Origin: Candidatus Poribacteria bacterium
GTDB taxonomy: Bacteria > Poribacteria > WGA-4E > JAJDTR01
Reading direction: 5' to 3'
Length of the DNA: 64,000 nucleotides
Assembly (NCBI GenBank): GCA_965222225.1
Contig: CBDCTK010000002.1
Span: forward strand, 3,328,001-3,392,000
Shown piece by piece: positions 2,937 through 63,313 of the stretch. The notes under the pieces were generated by a model. The model had not been told where the DNA came from, ran no database searches, and saw nothing but the letters and a program-made list of their open reading frames with translations. A program made the translations under genes and the position numbers. The first letter of the stretch is position 1. The number at the start of each line of letters is the position of its first letter.

Positions 2937-2971
2937 GGATTTCTATCGCAGTCATTATTCATTCCTTTGAT
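2937..2971 (-). repeat. 35-nt covarying GA-hairpin element inserted in a REP
   Basis: + strand GGATTTCTATCGCAGTCATTATTCATTCCTTTGAT lies between the REP halves GGCTGGTG and CGCACCCTACA. Confidence 0.85.
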
Positions 2972-3013
2972 CGCACCCTACAACGGCTTGATTGTGCCTT
3001 ACAACAACTGAAT

Positions 3014-4813
3014 TTACACTCTCACGACGGGGTTGCGGTGGAATTTGCGGGCGGCGGACAGGTTTACCCGCTGCTGTGCGGTGGTCGTGATGCGAGCGCG
3101 GCAGGCGCCTTGGACGGCGTCGGGGGCGTCGTTGTGATCCGCTGTCGGGAACTGGCGGAACTGCTTCCAGAACTCGCCGGGTAAGTCGCGCTCATTGAAC
3201 GCTAACCATCCGTTAGCTATAGCAGGCTCGAGCGTGGCGATCCGGTCTTCTTTGTTCTGGTGCTGCTCATGATATATAATCGCGCGGTCATACCGATGCC
3301 GCTCTTTCATCGTACGGAACGCGGCGTCGGTTGACATCTTGATGGTGCCGTCTTTGTCAGGCCGCTGTTCGCAAACGAAGTTGGATTTCGGGTACGCTGG
3401 CGCCAACATCGCCTCGGCTCGCTGTGCCAGCAAAATAGCGTTCTCCATCTGCTCCGTCAACGCCACACGCTCCATCCAAGCGAGCATGACGTATCCGTTC
3501 ACGCCGGAAAGCGAATCGGGATTCATTGATTGACCCCCAAGAAGCGGTTCCCAGGCGATCACGACAGCGCAGGCGAAACTGTTGTCCGCCGCATCGCGTC
3601 CGCCCATGGTGTCAAGGTATGTCGTGAACCCGCCTATATCGTGCCACGGAACGACACGCTCATCATTCCGCCGAAAACCTTCATCGGTCACGGCGAATGT
3701 CATCGCGTTATCCATATCGAATAGTGACATCGACGGATCACGCGCGTCGTTCTGGAGCTCGCGCATGACAGAATGATAGCCGCGCTCGACGACTTCTTTC
3801 CGCACGGTGAGATAAGGCAATTCCGATTTCCAGAGCATCTGGACGCCGGAGCTCATTTCTTTCTCATGGAGCTGGTAGAATCCGTTAGCGTTCTGCTCGC
3901 GTTCGGAATCGTCTAGCGTGGTGTCGCTATAGAAGCGCTCCCACTGTTTCCAGAAGCGCTCGGCAGTGGGGTGATAGATGTCTTTGGGATATGTGACGGC
4001 TTCGAAGCGCAACGTCTCCCAACCAGGGACAGTGCGGAGGTGCTCGGAGAGCGATTCGGGGTGTTTGACAGTATCAACTATCATCGTGTTGGAGTGTTTG
4101 CTCCCCAAGTCACCGGCGTACATAAGATCCGTCATGAACCAATCCCTATCTTCCTCACGCAAATCCGGATTCAGACATCGCTTCGGATCTTCGATATCGT
4201 CGCACAGTTTCAACGTCGGCCGGACATCGCCGATGAGCGCGCCGCGGGGGGAGGAGCCGCGTCCGAGGGGTCTCAACCCCACGCCGTTACTGGTGTCGGT
4301 CTCGGTCTTTGACCACGGATCGCCGACCAAGTCGCCAAAATCTTGGCGGATGAGGGGGTTGCGTTCAAGCACCTGGCGGATCTCGGTTATGCGTTGGCGC
4401 GCCATGCGTTCGTTGCGACCGACAATGAGGATAAACTCCTCCGGCTGCCTATCCATGGCGATATCGAAGTCCTTGTAGCAAATGCGCCAGATAGGGATAA
4501 GCCGGTTGACAAGGGTGGTCTTGCCGGTGCCGCGCGGTGCTTGGACATTTATCTGTTTCCCATAATCACCGGGCTTTATCGTGTTCAGTATTTCAATATG
4601 GAAATCCATTATTTGGTCTATGCGATAGCTGATACCCGCGATGTAGAACCAGATGAATAGCTCGGGGAAGACATAACCGGCGTGGGCTGTGAGAAGGCGA
4701 TAACCCTCCTCATCCTTCCGATTTTTTGTTTCCTCGATCCAATCTTCTGTGGCGTCGAAGCCTATCAATTGCAGCTCGCTGATTAGAGGGACTGATGGAA
4801 CGATGGTGTTCAT
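3014..4813 (-). CDS. Phage terminase large subunit-like protein
   Basis: Walker A APRGTGKT, Walker B-like LCDDIEDP, ELQN motif, and a C-terminal RNase H-like nuclease with KEDRI and FPTADHNDAPDA motifs. Confidence 0.82.
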   Translation of the reverse strand: MNTIVPSVPLISELQLIGFDATEDWIEETKNRKDEEGYRLLTAHAGYVFPELFIWFYIAGISYRIDQIMDFHIEILNTIKPGDYGKQINVQAPRGTGKTTLVNRLIPIWRICYKDFDIAMDRQPEEFILIVGRNERMARQRITEIRQVLERNPLIRQDFGDLVGDPWSKTETDTSNGVGLRPLGRGSSPRGALIGDVRPTLKLCDDIEDPKRCLNPDLREEDRDWFMTDLMYAGDLGSKHSNTMIVDTVKHPESLSEHLRTVPGWETLRFEAVTYPKDIYHPTAERFWKQWERFYSDTTLDDSEREQNANGFYQLHEKEMSSGVQMLWKSELPYLTVRKEVVERGYHSVMRELQNDARDPSMSLFDMDNAMTFAVTDEGFRRNDERVVPWHDIGGFTTYLDTMGGRDAADNSFACAVVIAWEPLLGGQSMNPDSLSGVNGYVMLAWMERVALTEQMENAILLAQRAEAMLAPAYPKSNFVCEQRPDKDGTIKMSTDAAFRTMKERHRYDRAIIYHEQHQNKEDRIATLEPAIANGWLAFNERDLPGEFWKQFRQFPTADHNDAPDAVQGACRARITTTAQQRVNLSAARKFHRNPVVRV

Positions 4814-5243
4814 CTGTTAGTTTCGCCGCTTCGTGGTGCGCTACGTCCTTGACCGGATAGATAGAGCGAGACACGGCAAGCAGGTCGTGGGCGTTGTCAA
4901 TGGAGATGTCGCGTGCACCACGGCGAACTTTTTCGACAAGCTCCAGGATTGCCGTGGAAGCCTTGCCAGCCGTGGCTTGAAGCAATGCGCGACGTTCTTC
5001 GTTAAAGTTCGCTAAAGTTCGTGCGTATATATCACGCCATTTTTTTGAAAAGCGCGTGGACCCCGGGTTAGAAAGTAATGATGCATCAGTAAATTTCTTG
5101 CGGTCAATGTGTTTCCACTTCGGATATTTTTCTATCCATGAATTGACAATCTGCGAGGTCGTCCAGCCATCGTATACACGCCGCCGGATGCCTTCAGCGT
5201 GATCTTCGTCAAATATTTTGAATTTGTCGCTTGTTGTTGCCAT
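4710..5243 (-). CDS. Putative terminase small subunit, or the N-terminal part of a frameshifted TerS-TerL fusion
   Basis: Basic helical ORF directly upstream of terL with a 104-nt overlap. Assignment is by position only. Confidence 0.45.
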   Translation of the reverse strand: MATTSDKFKIFDEDHAEGIRRRVYDGWTTSQIVNSWIEKYPKWKHIDRKKFTDASLLSNPGSTRFSKKWRDIYARTLANFNEERRALLQATAGKASTAILELVEKVRRGARDISIDNAHDLLAVSRSIYPVKDVAHHEAAKLTDEHHRSISPSNQRAAIDRLRRHRRLDRGNKKSEG

Positions 5244-5337
5244 GTTAATTGCGCAAAGATTTAAGTGGTTTATTTTCTAAGAGTCTATGGTAAGTGCTGG
5301 GGAACGGTTTGTAACATTGTCTGAACTGTGATTCATG

Positions 5338-5634
5338 GGATCTGTATCGAACTCACTCATCAGTCGTTTGATCTCATTTGATCCTCATTCAGTCGTGTGA
5401 TTGTTCGTTATTCACTGACTTGATTCCTCCGGCAAATCAAAAGGCTGGTAGGATTTCTATCGCGCTCATTATTCATTCGCTTGATCGCAGTGCGCACCCT
5501 ACAGGGATTTCTATCGCGCGTGCTATAGGATTTACTATGGGAGTTCTATCGGGATTTACTATCGCACAGGATTTGCTATCGCGCTCCCTGTTCAGTCGCT
5601 TGATCGTTATTCACTCGTTTGATTCGTCCTACAG
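5338..5634 (-). repeat. Cluster of nested 35-nt GA-hairpin elements and REP fragments
   Basis: Full units at 5451-5485 and 5569-5604, with stacked left halves (GGATTT.CTATC) and right halves (..TTGAT). Confidence 0.85.
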
Positions 5635-5659
5635 TGGTTGTTTGGCGGACAGATGGAAC

Positions 5660-5809
5660 AAAAAAAGCCCGTCAGCGGTGTCAGTAAAAAGCAGTGGTTA
5701 GTGACCAGCCGCCAGTGACCAGTAAAAGCCAAGATATTCTCTTGGTGTTACTGACCACTAACCACTGACCACAAGCCACCGGGTTTCACAGACTTCCACT
5801 AGCGGGCTT
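5660..5809 (-). terminator. Long hairpin with U-tract (possible terminator/attenuator) containing heptamer repeats
   Basis: Minus strand AAGCCCGCTAGTGG...CCGCTGACGGGCTTTTTTT. The loop carries inverted GTGGTCA/TGACCAC-type heptamers. Confidence 0.5.
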
Positions 5810-5929
5810 GCCTCAGTTGCGATTTTAGTGCAACGCGGTTTGCGTTGTTTTAGGTACGGCGGCCCGCGCGCGCCTTGTCATATAGATGGCTGCGGAGCGG
5901 ACCAATGCCGCGAGGTGCAACAATGGGGA

Positions 5930-5958
5930 ATTATATCATGTTAGGGCCGATATGTCAA
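5930..5958 (-). promoter_or_regulatory. Consensus sigma70 promoter
   Basis: TTGACA (5958-5953), 17 bp, then TATAAT (5935-5930) with a TG extension. Confidence 0.8.
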
Positions 5959-6053
5959 GTGTTAATATGTTTTTAACATTGGGGAAGGCAGTGAGGAGTG
6001 GAGAAGGACAGAAAACGGGGAAACGAGAAGGGGGGAAGTTGGGGGAGGTGAGG

Positions 6054-6134
6054 GGATTGTCTATCGCAGTCGCTATTCGCTCCTTTGATCGTTTGATCTT
6101 ATTCGGTCACTTGATCTTTGTTCAGTCGCCTGAG
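6054..6134 (-). repeat. 35-nt GA-hairpin element plus stacked right halves
   Basis: Full unit at 6054-6089 followed by ..TTGATC fragments. Confidence 0.8.
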
Positions 6135-6376
6135 TGTTATTCATCTCCGAGACGAGATAGACTGTACCTTTGGATTTTCGAGCATGCTCGACCACATCGT
6201 TGGCGCAGCCCCAATATGCAACTAAAACGGCATTGCGCGTGCAGACCCAAGACTTGGCCCTTGTTGTAGCACGACATCAAACGTCCAAGCCTAGCTTACT
6301 TCCGGGTGGTTGAGATATCAGGTTTTTTGTCACGCTCCAGCTTAATAACTCTGTGTTCGTTGAATTGAAAATAGGG

Positions 6377-7621: not shown

Positions 7622-8533
7622 ATGAAGCAGGGGAAGGAATTGGACAGGAGTTTGCGAATCGCCGCGGGTACGGGGGAGGAGATTCGGGCGGAGGTGTCGG
7701 ATAACACGCTCAAGGCGTATGAGCACGCGACCCGCAAGCTGGAAGCTTGGCTAGACGGACGTACCCTAACCGATGCGGTGTTGGCGGAATATATCAGGTT
7801 TCTGTATGCACAGGGGAAATCGCCGGCTACAATCAATCTAGTCGTTTCCGCGGTGAAGTGGATGGCTGAGTACCGTGCGGTTGGCAATGTGGTTGGGGAC
7901 ATGACCGCGCGCGCATTGTCGAGAATCCGCGGCGAAGGTAAAGAGCGCGGGCGCCGCCAGGTAGACGGACTTACGTGGCACGAAGTGGAGCGGGTGTGCG
8001 CGGCGGCGGAATCGTCAGATACCGCGGCGGGCACCCGTGATGCCGCCATGATTAGCCTGATGAGCGATTGCCTGCTGCGTATCTCGGAGGCGGTCGCTGT
8101 GGATGTCGAGGATGTTAAGGACGAAGGGCTTCAGGTGCACGGCAAAAACGCAGACGAGGAGCAGCGGGGCGAAGTCCTGTATATCTGCGAATCGACACGG
8201 CGGTTGATAGAGCGGTATCGAACGAGAGCAGGGATTGCGTCGGGGGCTCTGTTTCGGCGGATTCGCTTCCAGAATCATGTCACTGAAAATCGGCTGGGTG
8301 TGAAGGGGGCACGTGGAGCGATACAGCGGCGGGCGGCGGAAGCGGGAATAGAGGGATCTATCAGTGGACATTCACTTCGTATCGGTTCCGCTGTATCGCT
8401 TGCAGAGGCCGGGGCAAGTGTGAAGGAGGTGCAACGGGCGGGGCGTTGGCAGAACCCGACGATGCCGGCGCGGTATGTGAGGGAAGCGCCGACGGAACGG
8501 AGCCCTGTGGAGCGGTATAAGGATGGGAAGTGA
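7622..8533 (+). CDS. Tyrosine recombinase, Cre-like
   Basis: N-terminal SAM-like domain, LLRISE (R), GHSLR (HxxR), GRW and MPARY (catalytic Y). Confidence 0.88.
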   Translation: MKQGKELDRSLRIAAGTGEEIRAEVSDNTLKAYEHATRKLEAWLDGRTLTDAVLAEYIRFLYAQGKSPATINLVVSAVKWMAEYRAVGNVVGDMTARALSRIRGEGKERGRRQVDGLTWHEVERVCAAAESSDTAAGTRDAAMISLMSDCLLRISEAVAVDVEDVKDEGLQVHGKNADEEQRGEVLYICESTRRLIERYRTRAGIASGALFRRIRFQNHVTENRLGVKGARGAIQRRAAEAGIEGSISGHSLRIGSAVSLAEAGASVKEVQRAGRWQNPTMPARYVREAPTERSPVERYKDGK

Positions 8534-8614: not shown

Positions 8615-8898
8615 GGATTTCTATCGTACGCGATTTGCTATGGGAGCTCTATCGCAGTCATTATCCATTCCCTTGATCGGTCGCTATCCGTTCCCTTGAT
8701 CCTTCGCTGTTTGGTCGGTTGATCCTACTGAATCGCGACCAGGAGGTCGCTCCTACAGGACCTACACTTGCCGTCCCGCCGGGGATTTCAAAGGCTGGTG
8801 CGCGGTGCGCACCCTACAGAGTCGCGATTCGGAGATCGCTCCTACAGAGGATAGGATTTCTATCGCGCTCCTTATTCAGTCGCTTGATCGCACCCTAC
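8615..8898 (-). repeat. Cluster of 35-nt GA-hairpin elements and GTAG REPs between convergent genes
   Basis: Full units at 8643-8677 and 8854-8888, right halves at 8678-8723, and REPs at ~8731-8758, 8790-8818 and ~8821-8847. Confidence 0.85.
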
Positions 8899-11855
8899 AG
8901 GTTCGGTGGGATGCGATAAGCGCGATAGAGGCGGCTCTTTAGGTCGTCCTTAACCTCCGGTTTTGATAGCTTGTTATACAGTTCCACCTTGTTATTGACA
9001 AAATCCAGCAGGATTGTGTCAAGCACTTGTCCAAATTTGTAGTGTCGGTTGCTCTCCGTATTGTCGCCCTCCATAACCTGCCGAAGGTCTTCATTCTCGT
9101 TCACCCTGCGGCGGATTGTGTCAATATCAACCTTGTCTTCCTCGGTGAAGTCTGTCTGATGGGCATTGTTCAACGCCTCAATGATACTGGAGAGCAAATC
9201 TACCTCCGGATCGGCGATGGTGCCCTCTCCACTCCCGATTCCGGGAACTTCGCTGTCCTCCGATTCAAGTTTGAGTTGCAAATCTTTATGGACTTGCTGA
9301 ACGCGAAACGAATCCAAGTCCACCGCTTCCAGCACATCGCTCACGTCGGGGTGCTCCCGTTTCGGCAGCTTTTTGTTGAGGCTGCGAGCAAAGACGTACA
9401 GTTTCTCCAGATCGGCGTCGGTGAAGGTAATCAACTGCGAGATATAGCCGTAGAGGCGGATGTAGCTTTGCAAGGCGGATCGGAACTCCTCTCGTTCCTC
9501 CTCGTCCCGGTCCGACCAGCGTTCGACAACCTCGTCCAAGATGGCCTGTATCAATTCGTCGGGTTGCTCCCCGTCATAAAAGACGAGGCAGAATCGGTTG
9601 ATGGTATCCTCGCTGTAGACGTTGAAATCCTCCAACTGGCGCTGCAGGTCGTACAACCGATTGGGGTCGGTCTCCTCCGCCAGCATCGTCGTCTGGTAAT
9701 ACTGCTGAAAGGCGGCTTGGATTCCGTCGGGTTCGTTCACGAAATCGAGCACCAGCGTATCCGTCTTGCCCTCGACGACGCGGTTCAAGCGGCTTAGGGC
9801 TTGGACGCATTGCAGCCCCTCCAGCCGTTTGTCAACGTACATGGTGTGGAGCATCGGCTCGTCGAAACCGGTCTGGAACTTGTTCGACACAATCAGAATC
9901 CGATACTTCGGACTCTTGAAGGTGTCGGGAATGGAGACGCCCGGCGGCAAACCGTTCATGCCGTTCTCGGTGTAGTCCTCTCCGTTGTCGGTGTCGTGCA
10001 CCGTGCCGCTGAAGGCGACCAGACAACCGTAAGGGAGATTCATCTCGCGCATCTGCTCCCCAAATTCCTGCTTGTAGCGGACGCAGTGAAGACGGGATCG
10101 CGTAATCAGCATCGCCCGTCCCTTACTCCCAATCGTCTTCGCCGTGTGTCGGATGAAGTGTTCAAGCATAATCTTCGTCTTCGTCTCAATGCTGTGCGGT
10201 TGTAGATCAACGTAGTTCGTCAAGGCGCGCAGCGTCCGCCCCGTCTCGTAGACTTTATCATCCTCCGCGTTCTTGACCAGTTGGAAGTACCGCTTGAAGG
10301 TGTTGTAGTTCTGCAAGACATCAAGCGTGAAGACTTCGCTGATGCTCTGTTTCATGGAATAGACGTGGAACGGGAGGAACTTTCCGTCTTCGCCCTTGCG
10401 TCCGAACAGTTCCAAGGTTTTGTTCTTGGGCGTACCGCTGAACCCGAAATAGGAGATGTGATCCTGCGCGCCCCGGAGTTCCATCTCCCGGATAATCCGC
10501 GCGTCCATATCGGATACTTCCGCGCCGTCATCATCGGCGCCCTCGTCCGCCTCTATCCCTCGCGACAGCGATGCCCTTAGGTTGCGCGCCGCCTCGCCGG
10601 TCTGGGAGGAGTGGACTTCGTCAATAATCACGGCGAAGGTTTTGCTTTTGAGTTCGCCGATGGTTTCGGCAATCACGCTGAATTTTTGTATCGTGGAGAT
10701 GATGATGTCCTTGCCGGTTTCCAGGAAGCCTCTGAGTTGCACGGAGGTCTTGTCAACGGAATGGACGACGCCTTCCACCTGCTCCGACTGCTTGATGGTC
10801 TCCTGGAGTTGTTTGTCGAGCACGCGCCGGTCGGTGACGACAATCACCGAGTCGAAGATGCGCTCCGTATCCGTCGGGGAGCGGTAGAGATGCGTCAGCA
10901 GGTGCGCCAGCCAAGCGATGGAGTTCGACTTGCCGCTGCCGGTGGCGTGTTGGATGAGGTAGTTGCGCCCGACGCCTTCCACAACGATAGCCGCTTTCAG
11001 TACCCGGATTACGTCAAGCTGGTGGTAGCGCGGAAAGACCAGTACCGACTCCTTTTTATCTTTCACCGCGCCCAAGCCGGCGTCGAAAACTTTTGTTGTG
11101 ACCTCCTGCTCATGGATGAAGTCCCCAATTAAGTGCAGCAGGTTATCGGGTTGCAGGATATCCTCCCAGAGGTAGGCGACCTTGTGACCGTCGTCGTTCA
11201 CCGGGTTTTCGATATCCCTGTTAAACGGAAAGAATCGGGTTTCGTTCCCCGCCAAGCGGGTCGTCATGGAGACCTTCTCGTTGCCCACGGCGAAGTGTAC
11301 CAGGCAGCGCTTGAATTTGAAGAGCGGCTCTCTGGGGTCTCGATCCTCCTTATACTGTTTCTCGGCGTCCGTCACCACCTGACCGGTGAGGCTGTTCTTG
11401 AGTTCCATTGTCACCAGCGGTAGACCGTTGAGGAACAATGCCATGTCCAGCGATTTTTCGTTTCGCTGCGAATACTTGAGTTGGCGGATCAGGGTGAATC
11501 GGTTCAGCGCGTGGAGGCGTTGATGGTCGGGGTTCATGCCGCTCGACGGACGGAAGTAGGTCAGGCTGAAGTTGCAGCCGCGGTCTTTCACGCCTTTGCG
11601 CAGCACATCAAGGACACCGCGGCGCTCAATCTGCATTGCGATTCGATTGAGGAGCCTATCCGGCGTCGCTGCCCCGTATTCGCGTTTAAGCCGCTCATAC
11701 TCCGTTGGTTGTGTATTTTGAATGAATTTCAGCAACTCCTCGGGAATCAGGCAGGCGTATTTGTCGTAGTCGGGGGATTGGAGTGAACGGTAGCCCGACC
11801 GGTTCAGGCGCTCTTCAATGTGGTCTTCGAAATTGGTTTCGGAGTACGTGCGCAT
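8895..11855 (-). CDS. hsdR: Type I restriction enzyme R subunit
   Basis: HsdR_N nuclease (D...ELKN), HATGSGKS Walker A, IIDEVHSSQ, and FQTGFDEP and QALSRLNR helicase motifs. Confidence 0.95.
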   Translation of the reverse strand: MRTYSETNFEDHIEERLNRSGYRSLQSPDYDKYACLIPEELLKFIQNTQPTEYERLKREYGAATPDRLLNRIAMQIERRGVLDVLRKGVKDRGCNFSLTYFRPSSGMNPDHQRLHALNRFTLIRQLKYSQRNEKSLDMALFLNGLPLVTMELKNSLTGQVVTDAEKQYKEDRDPREPLFKFKRCLVHFAVGNEKVSMTTRLAGNETRFFPFNRDIENPVNDDGHKVAYLWEDILQPDNLLHLIGDFIHEQEVTTKVFDAGLGAVKDKKESVLVFPRYHQLDVIRVLKAAIVVEGVGRNYLIQHATGSGKSNSIAWLAHLLTHLYRSPTDTERIFDSVIVVTDRRVLDKQLQETIKQSEQVEGVVHSVDKTSVQLRGFLETGKDIIISTIQKFSVIAETIGELKSKTFAVIIDEVHSSQTGEAARNLRASLSRGIEADEGADDDGAEVSDMDARIIREMELRGAQDHISYFGFSGTPKNKTLELFGRKGEDGKFLPFHVYSMKQSISEVFTLDVLQNYNTFKRYFQLVKNAEDDKVYETGRTLRALTNYVDLQPHSIETKTKIMLEHFIRHTAKTIGSKGRAMLITRSRLHCVRYKQEFGEQMREMNLPYGCLVAFSGTVHDTDNGEDYTENGMNGLPPGVSIPDTFKSPKYRILIVSNKFQTGFDEPMLHTMYVDKRLEGLQCVQALSRLNRVVEGKTDTLVLDFVNEPDGIQAAFQQYYQTTMLAEETDPNRLYDLQRQLEDFNVYSEDTINRFCLVFYDGEQPDELIQAILDEVVERWSDRDEEEREEFRSALQSYIRLYGYISQLITFTDADLEKLYVFARSLNKKLPKREHPDVSDVLEAVDLDSFRVQQVHKDLQLKLESEDSEVPGIGSGEGTIADPEVDLLSSIIEALNNAHQTDFTEEDKVDIDTIRRRVNENEDLRQVMEGDNTESNRHYKFGQVLDTILLDFVNNKVELYNKLSKPEVKDDLKSRLYRAYRIPPNL

Positions 11856-12129: not shown

Positions 12130-12249
12130 AAGAGGTAGGAAATCTCTATTAAGGAACGCTTTCTCAAAGCTAACCAAGGATCGAAAAACGAGTGTTGCTT
12201 GCTGAAAGAATTTTTCCGACAGGAATAATGGCGCGCTACAGACATATCA

Positions 12250-12307
12250 GGATCTCTATCGCACTCACTATCCGTTCGTTTGATCACTCCTTATCCAGTC
12301 GCTTGAT
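12250..12307 (-). repeat. 35-nt GA-hairpin element plus a right half
   Basis: Full unit at 12250-12284, partial at 12285-12307. Confidence 0.85.
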
Positions 12308-12480
12308 CTCACTCTGGAGCGAAGGTTCCTATTAGACTGTTAGGACTATCTTGTATTATACTTGCTGGAGGCACGAACATGGCGAGGGCTTCGTTGACGT
12401 ATCCATTTTTTCTGTGTCATCTTCTGAATCTATTTCAGTAATAGTTATGCACACGCCTCAGTTATGTGATATGTAGATAC

Positions 12481-20109: not shown

Positions 20110-20319
20110 TAAATTATACCATTTTTCTAAAATTCAAGTACATTGATTACGTGGAACAAGTAACGAAACTTGCAAGGAGCGGAATAAGAAGCATTGTGTC
20201 CGCACAAAAGCGGCGGGGCAAGGGGTCTCTATTGATCAACCGACCAAATAGGGAAGGCAATAGGTAAATTTACTCGTTATTCACTCGTTTGTGCCCGCTG
20301 GCGCTCTCAAAGGCTGGTA

Positions 20320-20354
20320 AGAGTTCTATCGCACTCCCTAGGCAGTCGCTTGAT
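20320..20354 (-). repeat. 35-nt GA-hairpin element inserted in a REP
   Basis: AAAGGCTGGT-A-[unit]-CGCAGTGCGCACCCTACA, compared with the intact REP at 41-69. Confidence 0.85.
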
Positions 20355-20398
20355 CGCAGTGCGCACCCTACAACTACACTAAATTATACCTTCTGTGG

Positions 20399-22447: not shown

Positions 22448-22626
22448 GGATCTACTATCAGGACTTTCTATCGCCTTAGGTTCTCTATCGCGCATGCTAT
22501 TCAGGATCCCTATCGCGCAGGGATCTCTATCAGGATTTTCTATCGCCTTCGCTATTCACTCAGTTGATCGCTCCTTTTTCAGTCGCTTGATCTATTCGCT
22601 TCCTTGATCGTTCAGTTGATCCTACA
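22448..22626 (-). repeat. Deeply nested stack of 35-nt GA-hairpin elements
   Basis: Five left halves, one full unit (22533-22568), three right halves, then CCTACA. Confidence 0.85.
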
Positions 22627-22870: not shown

Positions 22871-24121
22871 TTGAAAGTTATAGGATACAGATGCACCTTG
22901 GGTATCGGAATGGCGGTTTTACTGTTTGCTTCACAACTGGTAGCTCTCGCGGAGGACAAGAAAAGCCCGATTAAAGTTGGGGGCGCCATGCGGGCGAACT
23001 ATATCTACGGTACTTACACCGACGATGGCCGAGGCGAGACGATTGGCGATGTCGCGCTTGAGTTATTTCGACTGAATGCAGACCTTGGCATTGACAACAT
23101 CATCGGTAGACTGGAATACCGGTGGTATCCCAGGTATGGGAGCAACTCCAGCGGCTACAGTATGATACATACAGCGTGGCTAGGGTATAATCTGGGCGAT
23201 CTGGGCACTATCAAGGCCGGCGTTATCCGCGCACCTTTCGGGCCCACCGCCTACGGCGTCTCTACTAGTTGGTTCTTTGACCAGCATTTTTATGTTGGGC
23301 TCGCTGACGACCAGGACCTCGGCATCAGATGGAACGCCACCTTTGATAAACTGATGCTTGATGTTGGCTACTACCCCATGAGCGAACCCCAGACGATAGG
23401 AAATAGTCTTGCGAGTTCGCGATATAGCTATGACGTTGTCAAATGGGAAGAAAAAGCCGACGCAGAAGGCACGGTTGAATGGGGTGCCGGTGAAAACGGG
23501 TATGATGAGCAACATCAACTTAACCTGCGTGCAATCTATGCGCTTGAGAAGATTGCGGATGTGGGCGTGTCGATTCAATACGGGTTGCTGAAGGCGGCGG
23601 AAGGCATGGATGATGACGGCGCGAATCACTATGCGCTCTCTGCGCACATGAAGAACGTGTTCTCGGATTTCACGCTCTTTTCACAATTTTCCTATTATGC
23701 GCATAACATTACCGATGAAACTCCTTGGGGCACCGGCGACTTGATTCCAATGGGGGCTTACGATTTTGCTTGGCCCATAGCATCTAAGGGATTAATACCC
23801 GCGCTATCCCTGCGCTACAAGGGTATTGATACATCGGGTATTTCCTGGATTGACAGCGTTATGCCGTATATTGAAGCAAGCACTATCCTGAAAACGGTAG
23901 ATGGTTTCAACAACAGTACGTTGGTGACTCTTGGCGCTAGCTGGACAGTCCGTGGGAACCTGTATATCTACAGCGATCTGGCACTTTCCAACGGCAACTC
24001 CTTTGTCGGTAACGACGGGGATGTCTACGACAACATCTACACAGGGGCCGGTGACGTTGGCGCCAACGGAAATGACTCGTGGAATCGGCGCATTAATTTT
24101 AACTTCGGCTACTATTTCTAA
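22871..24121 (+). CDS. Outer-membrane porin-like beta-barrel
   Basis: Signal peptide, amphipathic beta strands and C-terminal NFNFGYYF. Lies upstream of the BCCT transporter. Confidence 0.75.
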   Translation: MKVIGYRCTLGIGMAVLLFASQLVALAEDKKSPIKVGGAMRANYIYGTYTDDGRGETIGDVALELFRLNADLGIDNIIGRLEYRWYPRYGSNSSGYSMIHTAWLGYNLGDLGTIKAGVIRAPFGPTAYGVSTSWFFDQHFYVGLADDQDLGIRWNATFDKLMLDVGYYPMSEPQTIGNSLASSRYSYDVVKWEEKADAEGTVEWGAGENGYDEQHQLNLRAIYALEKIADVGVSIQYGLLKAAEGMDDDGANHYALSAHMKNVFSDFTLFSQFSYYAHNITDETPWGTGDLIPMGAYDFAWPIASKGLIPALSLRYKGIDTSGISWIDSVMPYIEASTILKTVDGFNNSTLVTLGASWTVRGNLYIYSDLALSNGNSFVGNDGDVYDNIYTGAGDVGANGNDSWNRRINFNFGYYF

Positions 24122-24181
24122 GTGGCTACGCTTGTAGCCGCGGACCGCTACGTCTGTCCAACTAGAAGGAGAATTTTGAAT

Positions 24182-25729
24182 ATGCGTGAAGAAGGAAATC
24201 AACCCCACCTACCGGAGGAAAGGGAGTACAGGAAACTGTTCGGCTTAGACATCTACTTGACTCCCGTATTTGTAATTTCCAGTATCGCCATCCTCATCTT
24301 CGTCGTCGGGGCGCTCGTATTCCAAGAAGGCGCGACAAAGGTTTTCGGAAACACCCGCACGTGGCTAACTACGAACCTTGATTGGTTATTCATGATCACC
24401 GCCAACCTTGTCTTTCTGTTTTGTCTGGTTGTGGCGATCTCTCCACTCGGCAAGGTGCGCCTCGGGGGTGTGGATGCAAAACCGGAATACTCCAACTTGA
24501 CCTGGCTTTCCATGCTCTTCGCGGCGGGCGTGGGCATCGGTCTGCTGTTTTTCGGGGTGGCGGAGCCGATGTACTACCTGCAAAACCCTCCGCTCGGCAT
24601 TACCGCCGGGACGGCGGAAGCCGCGACCGTCGGCATATCGGCGACGGTTTTTCACTGGGGGTTTCACGGCTGGGCAATCTATGGTGTCGTCGGACTCGCC
24701 CTCGGCTTCTTTGCCTACAATCGAGGCCTTCCCCTCACCATCCGCTCGGTGTTCTATCCCCTGCTCGGAGACCGCATCTGGGGCTGGCCCGGCCATGTCA
24801 TTGATACGTTCGCCATATTCGCGGGTCTGTTCGGGCTTGCGACCTCGCTCGGATTGGGGGTTAAACAGGTCACATCCGGCATGAACTATCTGTTCGATGT
24901 TCCCGCAAACAACATCACCATGGTGATACTGATTGTGGTGATTACGGCCATTGCTATGATATCGGTGTTAACCGGTATTAACGTCGGGATAAAGCGTCTC
25001 AGCCAGTTCAACGTAATCCTCGCGTTTCTGTTGCTGGTGGCTGTTATCATTCTCGGTCCAACACTCTACATTTTCCGCAGTATGTTCGATGGGCTTGTTG
25101 GCTATGTTGTTAAGATTGTGCCACTCAGCAACTGGATTGGACGGGAGGACACCGGCTTCTTTCACGGCTGGACCACGTTCTACTGGGCGTGGTGGATAGC
25201 ATGGGCGCCCTTCGTTGGCACCTTCATTGCCCGCATCTCAAAGGGGCGTACGGTACGCCAATTCGTAATATTCGTGTTACTCTTGCCGACACTGGTATGT
25301 TTACTCTGGTTTGGCGCCTTTGGCGGCACCGCCCTTCACCAACACCTCGTCGAGGGCTATACCGGTGTGACCGAGAATGTCAAGTTGGAACTCGCGCTTT
25401 TCAAAATGTTAGATCAACTGCCGTTAACGGCGCTACTTTCCTCCGTCGCTATGCTTCTAACAATCATCTTCTTCGTTACCTCGTCAGACTCAGGCTCACT
25501 CATCATTGACACCATCGCAGCCGGCGGCAAAATGGACGCGCCTGTAGCTCAGCGTGTGTTTTGGTGTTCGATTGAGGGGTTAATCGCCATCGCGTTATTG
25601 CTTGGAGGCGGGCTGAAATCGTTACAGGCGGCGGCGCTCGCAACCGGTTTCCCGTTTGCAATTGTCCTATTGGGAATGGCGGTGTGCGTCTGGATGGGGC
25701 TTCGGAAAGAGGCCGCTAATCCCACATAA
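24182..25729 (+). CDS. BCCT-family betaine/carnitine/choline transporter
   Basis: SMLFAAGVGIGLLFFGVAEP, FHWGFHGWAIY, WTTFYWAWWIAWAPFVGTFIARISKGRT and FVTSSDSG motifs. Start set at the RBS-supported ATG. Confidence 0.95.
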   Translation: MREEGNQPHLPEEREYRKLFGLDIYLTPVFVISSIAILIFVVGALVFQEGATKVFGNTRTWLTTNLDWLFMITANLVFLFCLVVAISPLGKVRLGGVDAKPEYSNLTWLSMLFAAGVGIGLLFFGVAEPMYYLQNPPLGITAGTAEAATVGISATVFHWGFHGWAIYGVVGLALGFFAYNRGLPLTIRSVFYPLLGDRIWGWPGHVIDTFAIFAGLFGLATSLGLGVKQVTSGMNYLFDVPANNITMVILIVVITAIAMISVLTGINVGIKRLSQFNVILAFLLLVAVIILGPTLYIFRSMFDGLVGYVVKIVPLSNWIGREDTGFFHGWTTFYWAWWIAWAPFVGTFIARISKGRTVRQFVIFVLLLPTLVCLLWFGAFGGTALHQHLVEGYTGVTENVKLELALFKMLDQLPLTALLSSVAMLLTIIFFVTSSDSGSLIIDTIAAGGKMDAPVAQRVFWCSIEGLIAIALLLGGGLKSLQAAALATGFPFAIVLLGMAVCVWMGLRKEAANPT

Positions 25730-25893
25730 GATGGGTACCGTGCACTATAGCATCTCCATGAACCCACGAATCCTAGGTGTGTTAGGTCTTAGGCAGTCGA
25801 ACACTCAAAGATGCTTAGTCAGGCGATTCTGTAGGGAATAACGAGGATCTCTATCGCGCTCGTTATTCCCTACAAGAGCCGCGTAACATAAAA

Positions 25894-25956
25894 TCATGGC
25901 TGAAGATCGTAACTCCTGTTACTTACGTCAGTCTTGTCCGTGTCAAACACAATCAT
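25894..25956 (-). pseudogene. VapC/PIN toxin stub
   Basis: MIVFDT start overlaps the end of the antitoxin, then the frame stops after 20 codons next to a REP. Confidence 0.45.
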
Positions 25957-26167
25957 CTAACGCGCTCCAATCTTCCTTCGCTTCCGGCTCAGTGGGATTG
26001 ATGTATTTTATCGGCGTACTACGCAGCGGATATCGGTCTTTTTCACGCCGTTTTGAAACACATTGCAAAATAATGACTTCAACCAATTCCCCTACCTGAA
26101 TCGGCAAATCCTCTAATGTTACCCTTCGATCTTGGCTGATAACAGTTTCAACGCGGTGTGCATTCAT
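25943..26167 (-). CDS. Small antitoxin-like protein
   Basis: 74 aa with a VTLEDLPIQVGELVEVIIL motif and acidic EDW tail. Confidence 0.6.
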   Translation of the reverse strand: MNAHRVETVISQDRRVTLEDLPIQVGELVEVIILQCVSKRREKDRYPLRSTPIKYINPTEPEAKEDWSALDDCV

Positions 26168-26383
26168 TCGAGACGTACTCCCAAATCCAGCTACAGTTCC
26201 TAACCCTACACCAGTTTCTATTTTTGCACATCGATCAGTGTGCTAACTGCAAACAAAAAACTCAATGAAATCCCTCGTGCGGTGCTATTATTGCGTGAAT
26301 AGCGGTTTATGTTTGGATAGGCCTTCGACAGGAATCCCGTTGGTTCGAGGTAAACAACGCTCCGTAGACGGTCGTTACTAAAG

Positions 26384-27448: not shown

Positions 27449-27734
27449 TTTCAAAGATTGTCCTGTTTTGCACTCCAGCGGAGTGCCATGTTTGTAGTAA
27501 AGGACATCTCCTATTTCCTCGCTCCAGCAGAGCGGCATGACTCTTAGAAATAGAACTATTGATGATAGAACTGACCGGTAGAAATACCGTGCAACCAAAT
27601 GACGCAATCCTCAATCATAAAATGCCTGGCCTCCCTTCTAATCTTTTCAGTTGCACATCCGGCACGGATATTTTGAACTCGTTTTATCGGGATTAAGATC
27701 GTGCGTTTATTTTCGATTATTCTGAAAAAAATAC

Positions 27735-27763
27735 TTGACAATGCTCCACACGCGATTTATAAT
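27735..27763 (+). promoter_or_regulatory. Consensus sigma70 promoter of the iron-uptake cluster
   Basis: TTGACA-17 bp-TATAAT. Confidence 0.85.
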
Positions 27764-27792
27764 AGCCGAAATTTGTTTATAGGTTAATGTTA

Positions 27793-27811
27793 ATTGCGAA
27801 TGAGTCTCAGT
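27793..27811 (+). promoter_or_regulatory. Fur-like 19-bp operator, site 1
   Basis: ATTGCGAATGAGTCTCAGT, 18/19 identical to the reverse complement of 43861-43879. Confidence 0.65.
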
Positions 27812-27898: not shown

Positions 27899-27923
27899 GT
27901 CAATAATTTTGAAGTGGATATAA

Positions 27924-43677: not shown

Positions 43678-43760
43678 AGCGTCGTCGTTCTGTTGCACGG
43701 CTTCCTGTACTCGTTGATGTTAACATTTGATGAATCCCAACTGTTAACCTGTAGGCTGGG

Positions 43761-43796
43761 ATCAAGCGAACGGATAGTGAGAGCGATAGAGATTCC
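43761..43796 (+). repeat. 36-nt GA-hairpin element inserted in a GTAGG.TGGG..GAAACCCAAC REP
   Basis: ATCAAGCGAACGGATAGTGAGAGCGATAGAGATTCC, flanked by GTAGGCTGGG and AGAACGCAGTGAAACCCAAC. Confidence 0.85.
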
Positions 43797-50240: not shown

Positions 50241-50242
50241 GA

Positions 50243-52347: not shown

Positions 52348-52499
52348 TTTCCTTTTACTGTTGACATACTCATTGGGTATTTCTGACAATGCCCTTTGAG
52401 TTTACAAATCTCGTAGTTTCCCGAAAAGTCAAGGGACTGAAACTGAAAGTGTAACACACAATACATTTCTACAAATAAGAACCGGCACAATCCTGTAGG

Positions 52500-52715
52500 A
52501 TCAAAGGAGCGAATAGCGACTGCGATAGGGATCCCAGCGCGATCGATGATCGTCAAATCGTCGATTTCCCCTCTTACTGCGCACCAGCCTTTGAAAGCGT
52601 CGGCACGGGATCAAACGAGTGAATAACGATCGACTGAGTGATGAACGAAGGATCAAGGGAATGGATAATGACCGCGATAGAGTTCCCATAGAAGATCCCG
52701 TGCGATAGAGATTTC
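52500..52715 (+). repeat. 35-nt GA-hairpin elements including a triple nest
   Basis: Full units at 52500-52534 and 52652-52686, the latter inside two split outer copies spanning 52610-52715. Confidence 0.87.
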
Positions 52716-61842: not shown

Positions 61843-61891
61843 GCGGGTTCCTACCTATTGTTTGAATCACGGATTAAACTGGTGGCACGAA

Positions 61892-62845
61892 CTAGCGCGG
61901 GATTTCCAATTCGGCGAGCAATCTCTCAATCACGTTGTCCGCGGACAGCCCCTCAATTTCCGCTTCCGGTTTCAGAAGCACCCGATGCCGATAGACATGC
62001 GGGGCTAAGCGCTTCACATCATCCGGCAAGATGTAACCCCGTCCCTGTATTGCCGCGTAGGTTTTGCACCCTAATAGCAGCGAGATTGACGCGCGCGGAC
62101 TGCCGCCCAAAATGAGGTCGTCCGAACTGCGCGAGGCTTCGGCAATATCCACAATGTAGTTGAAAATGGAATCCTCAACCGTGACCGCCTGAATCGCCGC
62201 TTGGCATTGCAGAAGTAAATCCCTATCAATGACACCTTCAACCCCGGCATCCGCAAGTTGAGAGGCATCGAAGCCGTTGTGATAGTTAATCAGCACCTGC
62301 TGCTCCATCTCTCGCCCCGGATAATCGACGCGCAACTTGAATAGAAATCGATCCAATTGGGCTTCGGGAAGCGGATAGGTGCCTTCGTATTCCACTGGAT
62401 TCTGCGTTGCCATTACCATAAACGGCGCAGCCAGTTCGTGGCGGACGCCGTCAATACTGACCTGCCGCTCCTCCATACATTCGAGGAGCGCCGATTGAGT
62501 CTTTGCCGGAGCACGGTTGATTTCATCTGCCAGCAAAACGTTGGTGAAAACCGGTCCCCGCTTTAGGTTGAATTGATGCGTCCCGAGATCATAAACGCTC
62601 GTCCCGACAATGTCCGATGGCATGAGATCGGGCGTGAATTGCACCCGGCTAAATTCACCCGACACCACCATCGCCAACGTTTTCGCAATGAGAGTTTTGG
62701 CAGTACCGGGGACACCTTCAAGCAGTACATGCCCGCCGGATAGGAAACCGACCACTACCAGTTCAAACAGTTCCTCCTGCCCGACGATGACCTTTCGGGT
62801 TTCCTGTTTCATTCTTTCAAATACGCCTTGAATTAAATCGGACAT
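61892..62845 (-). CDS. moxR: MoxR-family AAA+ ATPase
   Basis: [44 protein letters not shown] and [14 protein letters not shown] motifs. Start set at the RBS-supported ATG. Confidence 0.95.
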
Positions 62846-62968
62846 AGTCCTCCTATTCTGAAACCGAGTTTTTCCTTGAAAACTCGGTTTCTTTTTCGCG
62901 CAACCGAGTTGGATGAGCAAACATCAACTCGTTGATTTCCCCTCTTCTCATTGCACATCCGGCGTGGG

Positions 62969-63313
62969 ATCAAAGGAACGAATAGATCAACCGAGCGAAT
63001 AGCGAGGACGATAGAGATCCCACTGCGATAGAGATCCCTAAAGCCCCAATTTATCGGGATTGGCATTATGCTTTTTTAATCGGCGCACTCCCCACCTTCT
63101 CGGTCTGATTGACGAATCCAGACCATCAATTGAGCGAATAGCGAGTGATCAAGCGACCGGCAAGGAAGCGCGATAGAGCTCCGATAGAAAATCCCATGCG
63201 ATAGAGTTCCCATAGAGATCCTTTCCAGCCCGACCCTACGAGAGATCCCACTTAGCCAATCCTAATCCGCGTAATCCGATCAAGCGAGTGGTTAACGAGT
63301 GCGATAGAGATCC
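62969..63313 (+). repeat. Clusters of nested 35-nt GA-hairpin elements
   Basis: Full units at 62986-63020, 63148-63182 and 63279-63313, with flanking halves. Confidence 0.85.

Follow-up and report, generated by a model that had tools for sequence, protein, structure and literature searches.

A 64,000-nt stretch of a Candidatus Poribacteria genome (the window) contains a short repeat, scattered between genes, whose variable bases seem to complement one another around invariant G and A bases. What is this repeat, is its pairing under selection, and does it move? The source genome is a MAG of a sponge-associated, uncultured bacterium. We give a probability of about one half to the reading that the 35-36-nt repeat is a family of non-autonomous mobile DNA elements in two Candidatus Poribacteria genera: a mini-element recognised by its structure and spread by a single-stranded DNA route through a RAYT-type Y1 enzyme.

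We searched the window with the pattern ATCAANNGANNGNNNANNGANNGCGATAG, allowing up to 2 mismatches. This search returned 17 matches, where 0.02 are expected by chance: 13 are exact, and of the others 2 carry a single mismatch and 2 carry two. The number 17 was reached in none of 100 shuffles. All 15 copies of the original prediction were recovered where it had placed them, and its hand counts proved exact: 12 of 15 copies have a perfect inner pair, 11 of 15 a perfect outer pair, and six of the seven exceptions are G-T wobbles. The seventh is the G-A at 43761. The 15 copies had been described as intergenic, and none of them overlaps a credible gene; the crude ORF calls at 5378-5701 and 5886-6269, which overlap copies, were taken as spurious because their translations consist of repeat sequence. 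The window also holds two degenerate copies and 10 fragments beyond those listed originally (Table 1). The leftmost coordinates originally assigned to minus-strand copies include the 6-7-nt tail.

Table 1. Copies and fragments of the element located in the window.
Feature	Position	Strand	Evidence
Full copy inside GTAG-REP (GTAGGGTGCG / element / CACCAGCC)	2936..2974	-	pattern; nhmmer 41.9 bits
Degenerate copy, 2 fixed-position mismatches	5344..5372	-	pattern
Full copy	5450..5488	-	pattern; nhmmer 44.0 bits
Full copy, nested; host 5' fragment at 5604-5623	5568..5607	-	pattern + profile
5' fragment of host copy, split by insertion at 5568-5607	5604..5623	-	profile positions 5-24
Full copy; 5' fragment of another copy at 6099-6116	6054..6092	-	pattern + profile
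Full copy, nested; host 5' fragment at 8678-8702	8642..8679	-	pattern + profile
5' fragment of host copy	8678..8702	-	profile positions 3-27
Full copy adjoining 3' end of type I restriction R gene	8853..8891	-	pattern + profile
Full copy, nested; host 5' fragment at 12285-12308	12249..12285	-	pattern + profile
5' fragment of host copy	12285..12308	-	profile
Degenerate copy, 2 mismatches	20235..20263	+	pattern
Full copy, loop GCCTA	20320..20357	-	pattern + profile
Full copy, nested; host 5' fragment at 22569-22592	22532..22571	-	pattern + profile
3' fragment	25844..25868	-	profile positions 16-40
Full copy, outer pair G-A	43758..43796	+	pattern + profile
Full copy, GTAGG before it	52498..52535	+	pattern + profile
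5' fragment	52607..52629	+	profile
Full copy	52650..52687	+	pattern + profile
Full copy, 1 mismatch; then 3' fragment at 63022-63038	62985..63021	+	pattern + profile
5' fragment of host copy, split by copy at 63145-63182	63125..63147	+	profile
Copy with 1 mismatch, second GA = AA	63145..63182	+	pattern + profile
Full copy	63277..63314	+	pattern + profile

The unit is 35-36 nt long. Its consensus is (A)TCAA-ab-GA-cd-G-NNN-A-d'c'-GA-b'a'-GCGATAG, followed by a 6-8-nt tail ending in CC (A-R-ATCC in the source genus, TCTT..CC in the second genus). On one strand the unit forms a hairpin whose two-base Watson-Crick steps are interleaved with purine-purine steps, namely AA/GC, the tandem GA/GA, and the loop-closing G..A pair. 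The supported structure consists of three invariant pairs (ATC/GAT) and two 2-bp steps, with AA/GC and GA/GA in between. The loop is G-R-A-Y-A in most copies, which fits the GNRNA type of RNA pentaloop. A is almost entirely excluded from the position 5' of each conserved G, as is T from the position 3' of each conserved A. The element contains no ORF and for this reason is non-autonomous, as had been proposed; it is among the smallest mobile-looking DNA elements seen.

The exact pattern occurs 704 times in the genome, with 289 distinct cores. Across these copies, columns 5-21 form 514 Watson-Crick, 162 G-T, and 28 other combinations; the corresponding counts are 660, 18, and 26 for columns 6-20, 662, 22, and 20 for columns 9-17, and 591, 95, and 18 for columns 10-16. 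The four pairs carry 0.85, 1.14, 1.25, and 0.45 bits of mutual information, respectively, and any other pair of columns at most 0.28 bits. In a cross-genome set of 150 copies (13 from the window and 137 taken from other Poribacteria records), pairing holds in 98.2% of cells, with changes on both sides in 229; none of 500 shuffles reached this level, and no more than 49% of cells pair in slid controls. The four pairs predicted to be under structural selection, and only those, covary within the genome and across genomes. Pairing in the element is selected. The wobbles on the folding strand (297 G-T versus 30 A-C in the 704 copies) pick the same strand as the original prediction. Folded with RNA parameters, the top strand of all four copies tested has the hairpin proposed there as its minimum-energy structure. 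With these parameters the hairpin alone is weak (-2.7 to -9.6 kcal/mol, z-scores -1.2 to +0.5), and with DNA folding parameters it is not predicted at all. At one orthologous place in four related genomes, each genome has a copy, and the stems are different yet complementary. The place of the copy beside the restriction gene is occupied in related genomes by other stem variants, or the copy is absent.

A profile search of the genome gave 1,443 matches, of which 993 had an E value below 0.001 and 792 were full length. The copy number with fragments is about 1,000-1,400, or 0.82% of the genome DNA. Crude ORF calls overlap 127 of the 894 profile matches above 25 bits, and the element shares with canonical REPs a high copy number and a mostly intergenic placement. 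Among 176 genomes searched, high copy numbers were confined to two Poribacteria genera; these belong to different families, and the fixed bases of the 29-nt core are identical between them, with different tails. Stray copies are concentrated on small contigs of other bins. The probability that the pattern reflects chance, or an assembly or library artefact, is negligible, and no support for this reading was found. The count in the window was matched by no shuffle, and a control pattern read backwards had no matches in all 176 genomes. Sequencing runs of nine studies contain the window, and contigs of four runs cover it, so the repeat is not the artefact of a single assembly; the original prediction had left a library artefact to be checked. 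Hundreds of copies are present in 14 separately assembled genomes.

For each of the 704 copies, we asked over 14 x 14 offsets whether the corresponding empty site was attested elsewhere in the genome. Empty sites were attested for 26 copies with a 36-nt block and for 16 and 11 copies with two 35-nt blocks; none of these sites carries a target duplication. Sites either hold the whole unit as a precise block or lack it, without target duplication, and the ends of this block vary by one base (35 versus 36 nt). G stands at base -1 in 650 of 704 copies, and C or G at base -2 in 626; the element lands 3' of G, mostly after C/G-G. The four bases just upstream read TGCG in 82 copies and AGCG in 73 copies out of 704. 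The best-attested sites are G^CGATAG, GCG^CAC, and GCGA^TC, and three landing sites lie in REPs (GTAGGGTGCGCACTGCG^CACC, GTAGGAGCGA^TCTCC, and GGGG^CGACAGG). Insertion sequences of E. coli and Pseudomonas also target REPs as landing sites; those are full-length and encode a transposase, whereas the element, for which REPs are likewise preferred landing sites, is 36 nt long and encodes nothing.

The favourite landing site is the G^CGATAG of an earlier copy, which results in self-nesting. The 5' part of a host copy in sense orientation is abutted by 155 of the 704 copies (22%), with break points after base 23 in 68, base 12 in 28, and base 19 in 22; a further 27 copies lie inside an antisense host. 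Identical cores recur in different surroundings (18 copies of one core have 18 flanks, and 47 copies of another have 41). The precise filled/empty comparisons, the nesting, and these recurring cores support the mobility that had been suggested. Short-read contigs break at copies of the element; because of this, filled/empty polymorphism is not demonstrable at the level of reads.

Copy orientation is associated with the sign of the GC skew (odds ratio 0.24, p = 2e-19; 0.15, p = 2e-40, with the gene-orientation component removed), and the heads of GTAG-REPs are biased likewise (odds ratios 0.23 and 0.35). This bias is common to the element and the GTAG-REPs and is tied to replication-type strand asymmetry. 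Judged from GC skew and the position of dnaA, the folding strand is mostly on the leading-strand template. Within 30 nt upstream, GTAG is found in 256 of 702 copies versus 33 of 702 for CTAC; the element is intermingled and co-oriented with canonical GTAG-REPs. The distance from the start of GTAG to the core peaks at 10 nt (83 copies), followed by 9 (33) and 17 (27); the 17 copies at distance 5 and the 13 at 6 nt are the only ones that would allow a gap of 1-2 nt.

A link to HUH/RAYT genes had also been suggested, and it is only circumstantial: Y1 genes are plentiful, with five Y1_Tnp matches in the genome and several classes of RAYT/TnpA-kind Y1 HUH enzymes encoded by these genomes. However, no Y1 gene has the element consistently at its flanks or shares its distribution, and no cognate enzyme was identified. 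A truncated RAYT lies inside the densest cluster of elements and REPs (C2:1.50-1.60 Mb; 52 plus and 11 minus copies). In single genomes a Y1 gene has copies on its flanks (L001, L005, L158), but its homologues elsewhere do not. Against L001, a subclass-1.2-type Y1, as the cognate enzyme, it has its own conserved end hairpins in all genera; in some genomes the element is merely inserted into these hairpins. Against L005, which is truncated and has two flanking copies, intact homologues elsewhere have no copies nearby. The remaining RAYT types have GTAG-REPs of their own on their flanks and occur in genera without the element. In the source genome, the HUH half is missing from the RAYT that goes with the commonest host REP. 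A miniature derivative of IS200/IS605 was rejected, the resident IS200-like gene being flanked by GCCCCAG.GGGGCGACAGGTG hairpins, unlike the element.

The element belongs to the REP/SDR kind. SDR4-6, the small dispersed repeats of Nostocaceae, are said to be 21-27 nt long and to have copies nested within copies. As far as the excerpted descriptions go, SDRs and the element are alike in being tiny mobile-looking modules that have no coding gene and insert precisely; the element is longer (35-36 nt), is found in a different phylum, and has a tandem G-A hairpin and a skew-linked orientation that these excerpts do not attribute to SDRs. SDR5 is reported to insert between the third and fourth bases of GCGATCGC (excerpt of PMC4390886). 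The block of the element also follows ..GCG or ..SG and starts with ATC, but the full SDR5 octamer in this excerpt, GCG^ATCGC, is not its target. Among cyanobacteria rich in this palindrome, a passage on Nostocaceae citing Elhai et al. 2008 (Genome Res 18:1484) places no SDR-like repeat outside this family.

With REPs and BIMEs (REPINs) the element shares short, high-copy, intergenic hairpins amounting to about 1% of the genome, stem bases that vary with complementarity kept, and a non-Watson-Crick feature in the stem. It differs from them in inserting as a block into other repeats and into itself, and in having no conserved REPtron. For E. coli REPs, an excerpt of PMC3333891 states that a stem mismatch is needed for enzyme binding and that the enzyme acts on ssDNA only. 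The canonical REP, as defined in an excerpt of PMC6006769, has GTAG/GTGG 0-2 nt 5' of the hairpin foot and 7-20 fully paired, G+C-rich basal bases. By this definition the element is not a canonical REP: it has no intrinsic GTAG/GTGG 0-2 nt from the foot, and its stem is made of 3+2+2 pairs interrupted by AA/GC and GA/GA. In the parts of both papers considered here, the spread of REPs is modelled rather than observed. The same parts describe, for IS200/IS605, an imperfect one-strand hairpin recognised by shape, insertion 3' of a short target without duplication, and replication-linked orientation (PMC3333891, PMC6006769). The element resembles these subterminal hairpins in these respects, recognition by shape being, for the element, part of the proposed mechanism; it has one hairpin instead of a left and a right end. 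Its orientation relative to the skew is also opposite to that of IS608/ISDra2, which lie on the lagging-strand template according to the excerpt of PMC3333891; this opposite arrangement counts against the favoured mobile reading.

The original prediction recognised no described REP, CRISPR, or Rfam family, and our searches agree. The covariance models of Rfam 15 gave no match at the gathering score in the whole 64-kb window, and none at E up to 1 in positions 5300-6200. A CRISPR array was rejected, as copies are dispersed on both strands and the local arrays have 14-16-nt REP-head linkers and no unique spacers. A MITE was rejected, as the terminal sequences, (A)TCAA and ..ATCC, form no inverted repeats and removal of the block alone restores empty sites.

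In the reading that we favour, the element would move as single-stranded DNA. Its shape and two single-stranded tags would serve for recognition, and a Y1 HUH enzyme of the RAYT/TnpA kind would cut and join it in trans. Copies without an intact hairpin would not be recopied, which would account for the covariation. More tentatively, the element may be a hyperparasite of the REP/RAYT system: a 36-nt ssDNA transposon, one of the tiniest mobile DNAs known, with a purine-zippered hairpin as its only 'gene', hijacking domesticated RAYTs, landing in REPs and its own G^CGATAG tag, travelling on the strand opposite to the IS608-type, and possibly joining nascent lagging-strand DNA.

Three other readings were weighed against this mobile one. 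The hairpin might be a recognition site that serves the host as RNA or extruded DNA, for example for a nucleoid, termination, or RNA-stability protein, with spread being secondary through recombination or gene conversion. The core shared by two genera of different families despite different tails, the complementary stems at the orthologous place, the G-R-A-Y-A loop, and the agreement of the RNA-parameter fold with the proposal in all four copies would suit such a site; in one metatranscriptome run, copy bins are far deeper than gene bins, a weak hint only, as summed contig depth does not show transcription. We regard this reading as rather unlikely. Orientation is almost independent of the flanking genes (179:127 between plus-strand genes and 113:100 between minus-strand genes), and occupied intergenic regions show no preference for convergent ones (convergent 120/552, divergent 128/551, tandem 519/3,215). 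Moreover, 22% of copies split, and so destroy, another copy; precise insertion of a block into unrelated repeats is the behaviour of mobile DNA; and Rfam gave no match even at the permissive E value. Movement by another route (reverse transcription of a small RNA, a nuclease or recombinase other than Y1, or hairpins as places of template switching or priming in lagging-strand synthesis) seems unlikely to us. The folding strand has the sequence of the nascent lagging strand, which misfits the IS608 model but would fit joining or copying at nascent lagging-strand ends; the variable block ends and the failure of any Y1 gene to match the distribution of the element point the same way. Yet neither the interior nor the surroundings of copy clusters yielded a candidate gene, and the nearby multi-copy sequences proved to be DDE-type insertion sequences, none of them abutting a copy. 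There are neither the terminal inverted repeats nor the target duplication that a DDE enzyme would leave, and 2.9 million viral contigs contained no match.

The element could also form the apical module of long composite REPs, which would run from a GTAG head through a basal stem to this hairpin, and be propagated by their cognate RAYTs only as a part of them. Several observations point to this arrangement: copies in the second genus lie between the two arms of a GTAGGTTGGGTT..AACCCAAC REP flanking a RAYT, the commonest core in the source genome follows GTAGGGTGCG in 21 of 47 copies, the repeating unit of arrays is a GTAG head plus core without the usual tail, and the orientation bias is common to both. 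Nevertheless, 413 of 704 copies have no GTAG in the upstream 40 nt, and elsewhere its distance ranges from 5 to 17 nt. Flanks able to pair over at least 6 bases are found for only 13.3% of 406 non-nested copies versus 5.2% of 2,000 control sites. The block also turns up in unique DNA, within its own copies, and in REPs of several families unrelated to one another, and two genomes of a third genus (G030 and G033) have the same RAYT and REP type with no copy of the element. We consider this composite quite unlikely.

The family bears on the spread of REPs and other very small repeats and on the role of RAYTs in cells. The footprints of this family are clean, with boundaries defined to one base, a defined landing rule, and a strand bias, and hundreds of nested events order insertions in time. 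The approximately 290 natural stem variants in one genome are a ready-made compensatory-mutation experiment, and the invariant G-A steps provide a simple structural hypothesis that is testable with oligonucleotides. The element takes up about 1% of a genome in an uncultured, sponge-associated phylum and is of a kind that standard palindrome and Rfam searches miss. It also matters for the assembly and binning of Poribacteria MAGs, through contig breaks and stray copies. If the hyperparasite reading were true, the family would provide direct genomic evidence that RAYT-type enzymes still move DNA, and a minimal substrate for testing such movement.

All 15 copies of the hairpin repeat listed in the original prediction were found in the window, together with two degenerate copies and ten fragments beyond that list. 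The pattern matched 17 times with up to two mismatches, compared to 0.02 expected by chance, and none of 100 shuffled sequences reached 17. The earlier hand counts were reproduced (inner pair perfect in 12/15 copies, outer pair in 11/15, G-T in six of the seven exceptions), and the copies were correctly described as intergenic: none of the 15 is within a credible gene; two crude ORF calls do overlap copies, but the peptides they encode derive from the repeat. Neither tRNA genes nor Rfam families were detected in the window as a whole, in agreement with the repeat not having been recognised as a described Rfam family; over positions 5300-6200, there was no Rfam match at E values up to 1. A library artefact had been named as a possible refutation. 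The window stretch is present in sequencing runs of nine studies, contigs from sequencing runs aligned to the window terminate inside copies, and sequencing depth spikes at the copy-holding bins of three DNA runs and one metatranscriptome run, which shows that the repeats are real.

The genome bearing the window (5.70 Mb, two contigs) contains 704 copies with the exact pattern, representing 289 distinct cores. A profile built from the 704 copies matched 1,443 places in the genome at E up to 1, of which 993 had an E value below 0.001 and 792 were full length; together, the matches occupy 46,985 bases, or 0.82% of the genome. Allowing up to four substitutions gave 1,260 non-overlapping matches, versus 9 in 2 Mb of shuffled sequence. 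The changes in 596 degenerate copies are spread across every fixed position; the G-A bases are therefore conserved as much as the tags, not more. The element is real and strongly supported. Coordinates are collected in the table.

Coordinates of copies, genes, and other features in the window and in Poribacteria genomes (G000, the genome bearing the window, with C2 one of its contigs; G066, another bin)
Location	Feature	Remarks
Window, 2.9-22.6 kb	Nine listed copies	Minus strand
Window, 43.7-63.3 kb	Six listed copies	Plus strand
Window, 1556-2603	DDE-type insertion sequence	339-aa transposase; Pfam DDE_Tnp_1 and DDE_5
Window, 3014-4813	599-aa ORF	P-loop; no Pfam match
Window, 7622-8533	Tyrosine recombinase	Phage_integrase
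Window, 8895-11855	Type I restriction R subunit	
Window, 24000-28000	Cumulative GC skew peak	Minus-to-plus switch of the copies in the 22.6-43.7 kb interval
G000 C2, 1,545,633-1,545,950	Sixth Y1-type gene	Found by protein search only
G000 C2, 3080255-3080728	L001, IS200-like Y1 gene	Subclass-1.2 type
G000 C2, 4780180-4780440	~160-nt composite repeat	About 20 other places
G000, 2.61 Mb	Best dnaA match	Adjoins the cumulative-skew minimum
G066 C72, 8552-13985	Dense small contig	10 copies in 5.4 kb

Base counts at each position of the 704 copies were used to extend the unit on both sides. G stands at position -1 in 650 copies, and either C or G at position -2 in 626; the tail 3' of GCGATAG reads A-R-A-T-C-C-(C), its length varying by one base. 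Between its G and its closing A, the loop has A or G (415 and 279 copies), A (627), and T or C (600 and 89). A is almost absent as the 5' neighbour of every conserved G (e.g., column 6 is A in 1/704), as is T as the 3' neighbour of every conserved A (e.g., column 9 is T in 5/704). Stable sheared tandem G-A pairs follow the context rule pyrimidine-GA-purine, and we take the element's avoidance of A before G and of T after A to be this rule. In the second carrier genus, the 29-nt core is identical, and the tail is TCTT..CC (26 distinct copies from loci of that genus).

The pairing of the hairpin is under selection. At the four proposed pairs, Watson-Crick or G-T combinations are found in 676, 678, 684, and 686 of the 704 copies, and the mutual information of these pairs is 0.85, 1.14, 1.25, and 0.45 bits, respectively; all other variable column pairs, loop columns included, reach at most 0.28 bits. 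As an internal control, these other column pairs disfavor subfamily structure as the cause of the covariation, and the contrast persists on the 289 unique cores. The predicted covariation was thus confirmed within the genome, and it was also found across genomes in a set of 150 distinct copies (13 from the window and 137 from other Poribacteria records). In this set, 98.2% of the cells pair, and none of 500 shuffles reached the score; changes on both sides occur in all four variable pairs (229 cells), and pairing falls to 15-49% when the partner is slid by one to three columns. The non-canonical cells of the 704 copies comprise 297 G-T or T-G versus 30 A-C or C-A. This asymmetry picks the ATCAA... 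strand, as predicted, as the one that folds, or that at least has a single-stranded phase.

When RNA parameters were applied to the folding strand, its minimum-energy structure was the proposed fold in 4/4 copies, closed by ATC/GAT or, where the flank permits, by GGATC/GATCC; at -2.7 to -9.6 kcal/mol, the energies are small, and shuffles do no worse. RNA parameters give credit to tandem G-A pairs. Folding with DNA parameters did not predict the proposed hairpin, which we take to reflect the parameter set and a weak hairpin, not evidence against pairing. The hairpin is therefore weak by itself; together with the strong covariation, this points to a hairpin kept for protein recognition rather than for thermodynamic stability. 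A likeness to K-turns or hammerheads was rejected, since the G-A pairs have no adjacent bulge and there is no Rfam match.

The proposal that the element is mobile is backed by filled and empty sites, by nesting, and by identical cores in unrelated flanks. In the empty-site test, the block was removed at 14 left by 14 right offsets, and the joined 10+10 flank was sought elsewhere in the genome. Removal of a 36-nt block, TCAA...CCC, worked best, with 26 cases, followed by removal of two 35-nt blocks, with 16 and 11; no case had a duplicated target. The empty forms are other repeats, among them GTAGGGTGCGCACTGCG^CACC, with up to 39 empty copies, and GTAGGAGCGA^TCTCC, with 43; the element itself is also among the attested empty forms. 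The idea that the three bases ATC are duplicated at the ends, or act there as a crossover core, was rejected because it did not restore the attested empty sites. Contigs of four runs end inside copies at the window; among the joints listed, none skips exactly one block.

Directly 3' of the 5' part of a sense host copy, that is, a copy split by another, lie 155 of the 704 copies. The host breaks after base 23 (G^CGATAG) 68 times, after base 12 28 times, after base 19 22 times, and after bases 18, 17, 10, 25, 8, 7, and 21 in 12, 10, 6, 5, 2, 1, and 1 cases, respectively; another 27 copies directly follow CTATCG of an antisense host, and the window has at least five nested pairs. Breaks and flanks together give a landing rule 3' of G, mostly following C/G-G, with the conserved tag of the element itself as the preferred target. 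Insertion into hairpin loops was rejected as a general rule, the enrichment being modest (13.3% versus 5.2%). Identical cores occur in different flanks (18 copies in 18 flanks, 14 in 14, and 47 in 41 for the commonest core). At one orthologous intergenic place, four related genomes have different, still complementary stems and two have no copy; the region is too variable to tell independent insertion from divergence in place.

Among 176 genomes of the phylum, the family is numerous in only two genera: 10/10 genomes of the window's genus have 459-1,094 exact copies each, and 4/4 genomes of a second genus, from another family, have 142-166. Another seven genomes hold between 1 and 17 copies each; in the five of these bins inspected, copies are confined to a few small contigs, and mis-binning is as likely as transfer. 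Dense small contigs in bins of other genera (that of G066, and others in G010, G125, and G146) are probably mis-binned contigs of the window's genus. A backwards-read control pattern had no match in the 176 genomes, and a viral contig collection had no match to the element. Among the papers listed by full-text searches on Poribacteria, none was found to deal with such repeats; the lists of REPs by subclass that accompany PMC6006769 could bear on whether REPs of this phylum have been catalogued. In the window, the surroundings of the 599-aa ORF, the tyrosine recombinase, and the type I restriction R subunit resemble an island of mobile and defence genes. The DDE-type insertion sequence at 1556-2603 has about 24 copies at 100% identity in the genome and is 86-96% identical in related genomes, which points to a very recent burst.

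Many copies are located in canonical REPs. GTAG occurs within 30 nt upstream in 256/702 copies, versus CTAC in 33/702, and the distance from GTAG to the core peaks at 10 nt. In the window's genome and related genomes, inverted REP pairs flank genes of the RAYT type (REP-associated Y1 HUH enzymes), with one REP family per RAYT type, so these REPs are genuine. Five Y1_Tnp matches were found in the genome: an intact protein of 157 aa with a tyrosine motif that fits subclass 1.2 of Quentin et al., a 247-aa class-2-like protein, and three that are short, broken, or truncated. The sixth Y1-type gene goes with the commonest host REP and sits in the middle of the densest copy cluster (52 plus and 11 minus in 100 kb); its HUH half is lost, and its homologue in the Poribacteria genome G001 is intact. 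In G001, the RAYT associated with the GTAGGGTGCGCACTGCGCACC REP is intact at locus L196.

The suggested connection to HUH/RAYT genes is circumstantial: the genome is rich in Y1 genes and REPs, but no cognate enzyme was found. L001, which has 13 homologous loci (L007-L019), is flanked by inverted copies in the window's genome, yet it has its own conserved hairpin ends in 14 loci from four genera. These are inverted GCCCCAG.GGGGCGACAGGTG hairpins on both sides, often in two or three tandem copies, and GCTCCAG.GGAGC at the fourth-genus locus; the element is only an occasional insertion there, at GGGG^CGACAGG in some genomes. A published survey gives no associated REP for subclass 1.2. The truncated RAYT L005 has two inverted flanking copies and was rejected as well: five other genomes of the same genus carry intact homologues of it, none with a copy within 1.2 kb. 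RAYTs of the L003 and L158 types are each flanked by their own GTAG-REP family and are found in genera without the element. An autonomous parent was also rejected; the sequences that recur in the vicinity of copies belong to DDE-type insertion sequences (24 and ~46 copies), and these do not adjoin the element.

The composite repeat (..CAGGTATGTAGCAGCCAACAATGAAAACATGAAAAAAC..CCACCGATTATTCAAACAGG) is located 3' of a GCCCCAG.GGGG hairpin; it may have arisen from the IS200-like element as a miniature form, or it may be a small RNA gene. At locus L195 (genome G005), the REP upstream of the RAYT gene carries a different small insert, again at the GCG^ site. This insert begins with ATC and has a perfect 7-bp hairpin (ATCGGTG..CACCGAT) and a GATCTTAC tail, which suggests that small hairpin modules inserting into REPs form a wider superfamily with common ends.

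The orientation of copies is almost unrelated to the way in which the flanking genes point (179:127 between plus-strand genes, 113:100 between minus-strand genes). It tracks local GC skew, with a Spearman's rho of -0.44 (113 bins of 50 kb) and a Fisher's odds ratio of 0.24 (p = 2e-19); after removal of gene-orientation skew, the odds ratio is 0.15 (p = 2e-40). Because the association is negative and the folding strand is rich in G, the copies cannot themselves cause the link. The GTAG-REP heads have the same bias (odds ratios 0.23 and 0.35). The window shows the switch, with minus copies at positive skew and plus copies at negative skew; its skew peak could be a local strand-asymmetry switch, either an inversion breakpoint or a terminus-like point. 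The dnaA match beside the cumulative-skew minimum indicates skew of the usual sign, which, given the negative association, would place the folding strand mostly on the leading-strand template (nascent lagging-strand sequence), although we infer the replichores from a MAG skew profile that changes sign many times.

One structured strand, block insertion without duplication 3' of a short, loosely defined target, an invariant non-Watson-Crick feature in the stem, replication-linked orientation, and association and co-orientation with REPs are footprints of Y1 HUH enzymes on single-stranded DNA. Trans-mobilisation by a RAYT-type enzyme is the most likely mechanism, with a probability of roughly 0.5; only copies with an intact hairpin would be recopied, which would give rise to the covariation. 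Against this mechanism, or unexplained by it, are that no enzyme fits the element's distribution, that the orientation is opposite to that described for IS608/ISDra2, that the block ends vary by one base, and that the RAYT in the genome's main cluster is broken. Mobility of the element by another route is unlikely.

The metatranscriptome depth spikes are only a hint of transcription and do not demonstrate it. That the element is a host-serving RNA or DNA recognition site is unlikely, if the least unlikely of the alternatives to RAYT-type mobilisation. An apical module of composite REPs is the least probable of these alternatives. The element works like REPs, yet it lacks two of the features that define canonical REPs in PMC6006769, a GTAG 0-2 nt away from the hairpin foot and a stem fully paired over at least seven bases. 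The element is not a MITE, an Rfam family, or, with its copies dispersed on both strands, a CRISPR array. Closest in behaviour, compared by description only, are the small dispersed repeats of Nostocaceae, which differ in size and phylum; according to PMC4390886, one of them inserts after the third base of GCGATCGC.

Other Poribacteria loci (L167-L186 and L187-L199) contain several RAYT types, each with its own GTAG-REP family, for example GTAGGCGGGGCATCTTGCCCCGC, GTAGGAGGGAACTCC..TTCCCGAC, GTAGGTGCGGTTTCCAACCGCACC, and GTAGGTTGGGTT..AACCCAAC. The element could serve as a marker of binning errors, and the RAYTs and GTAG-REPs of the Poribacteria constitute a rich REPtron set in an uncultured phylum.
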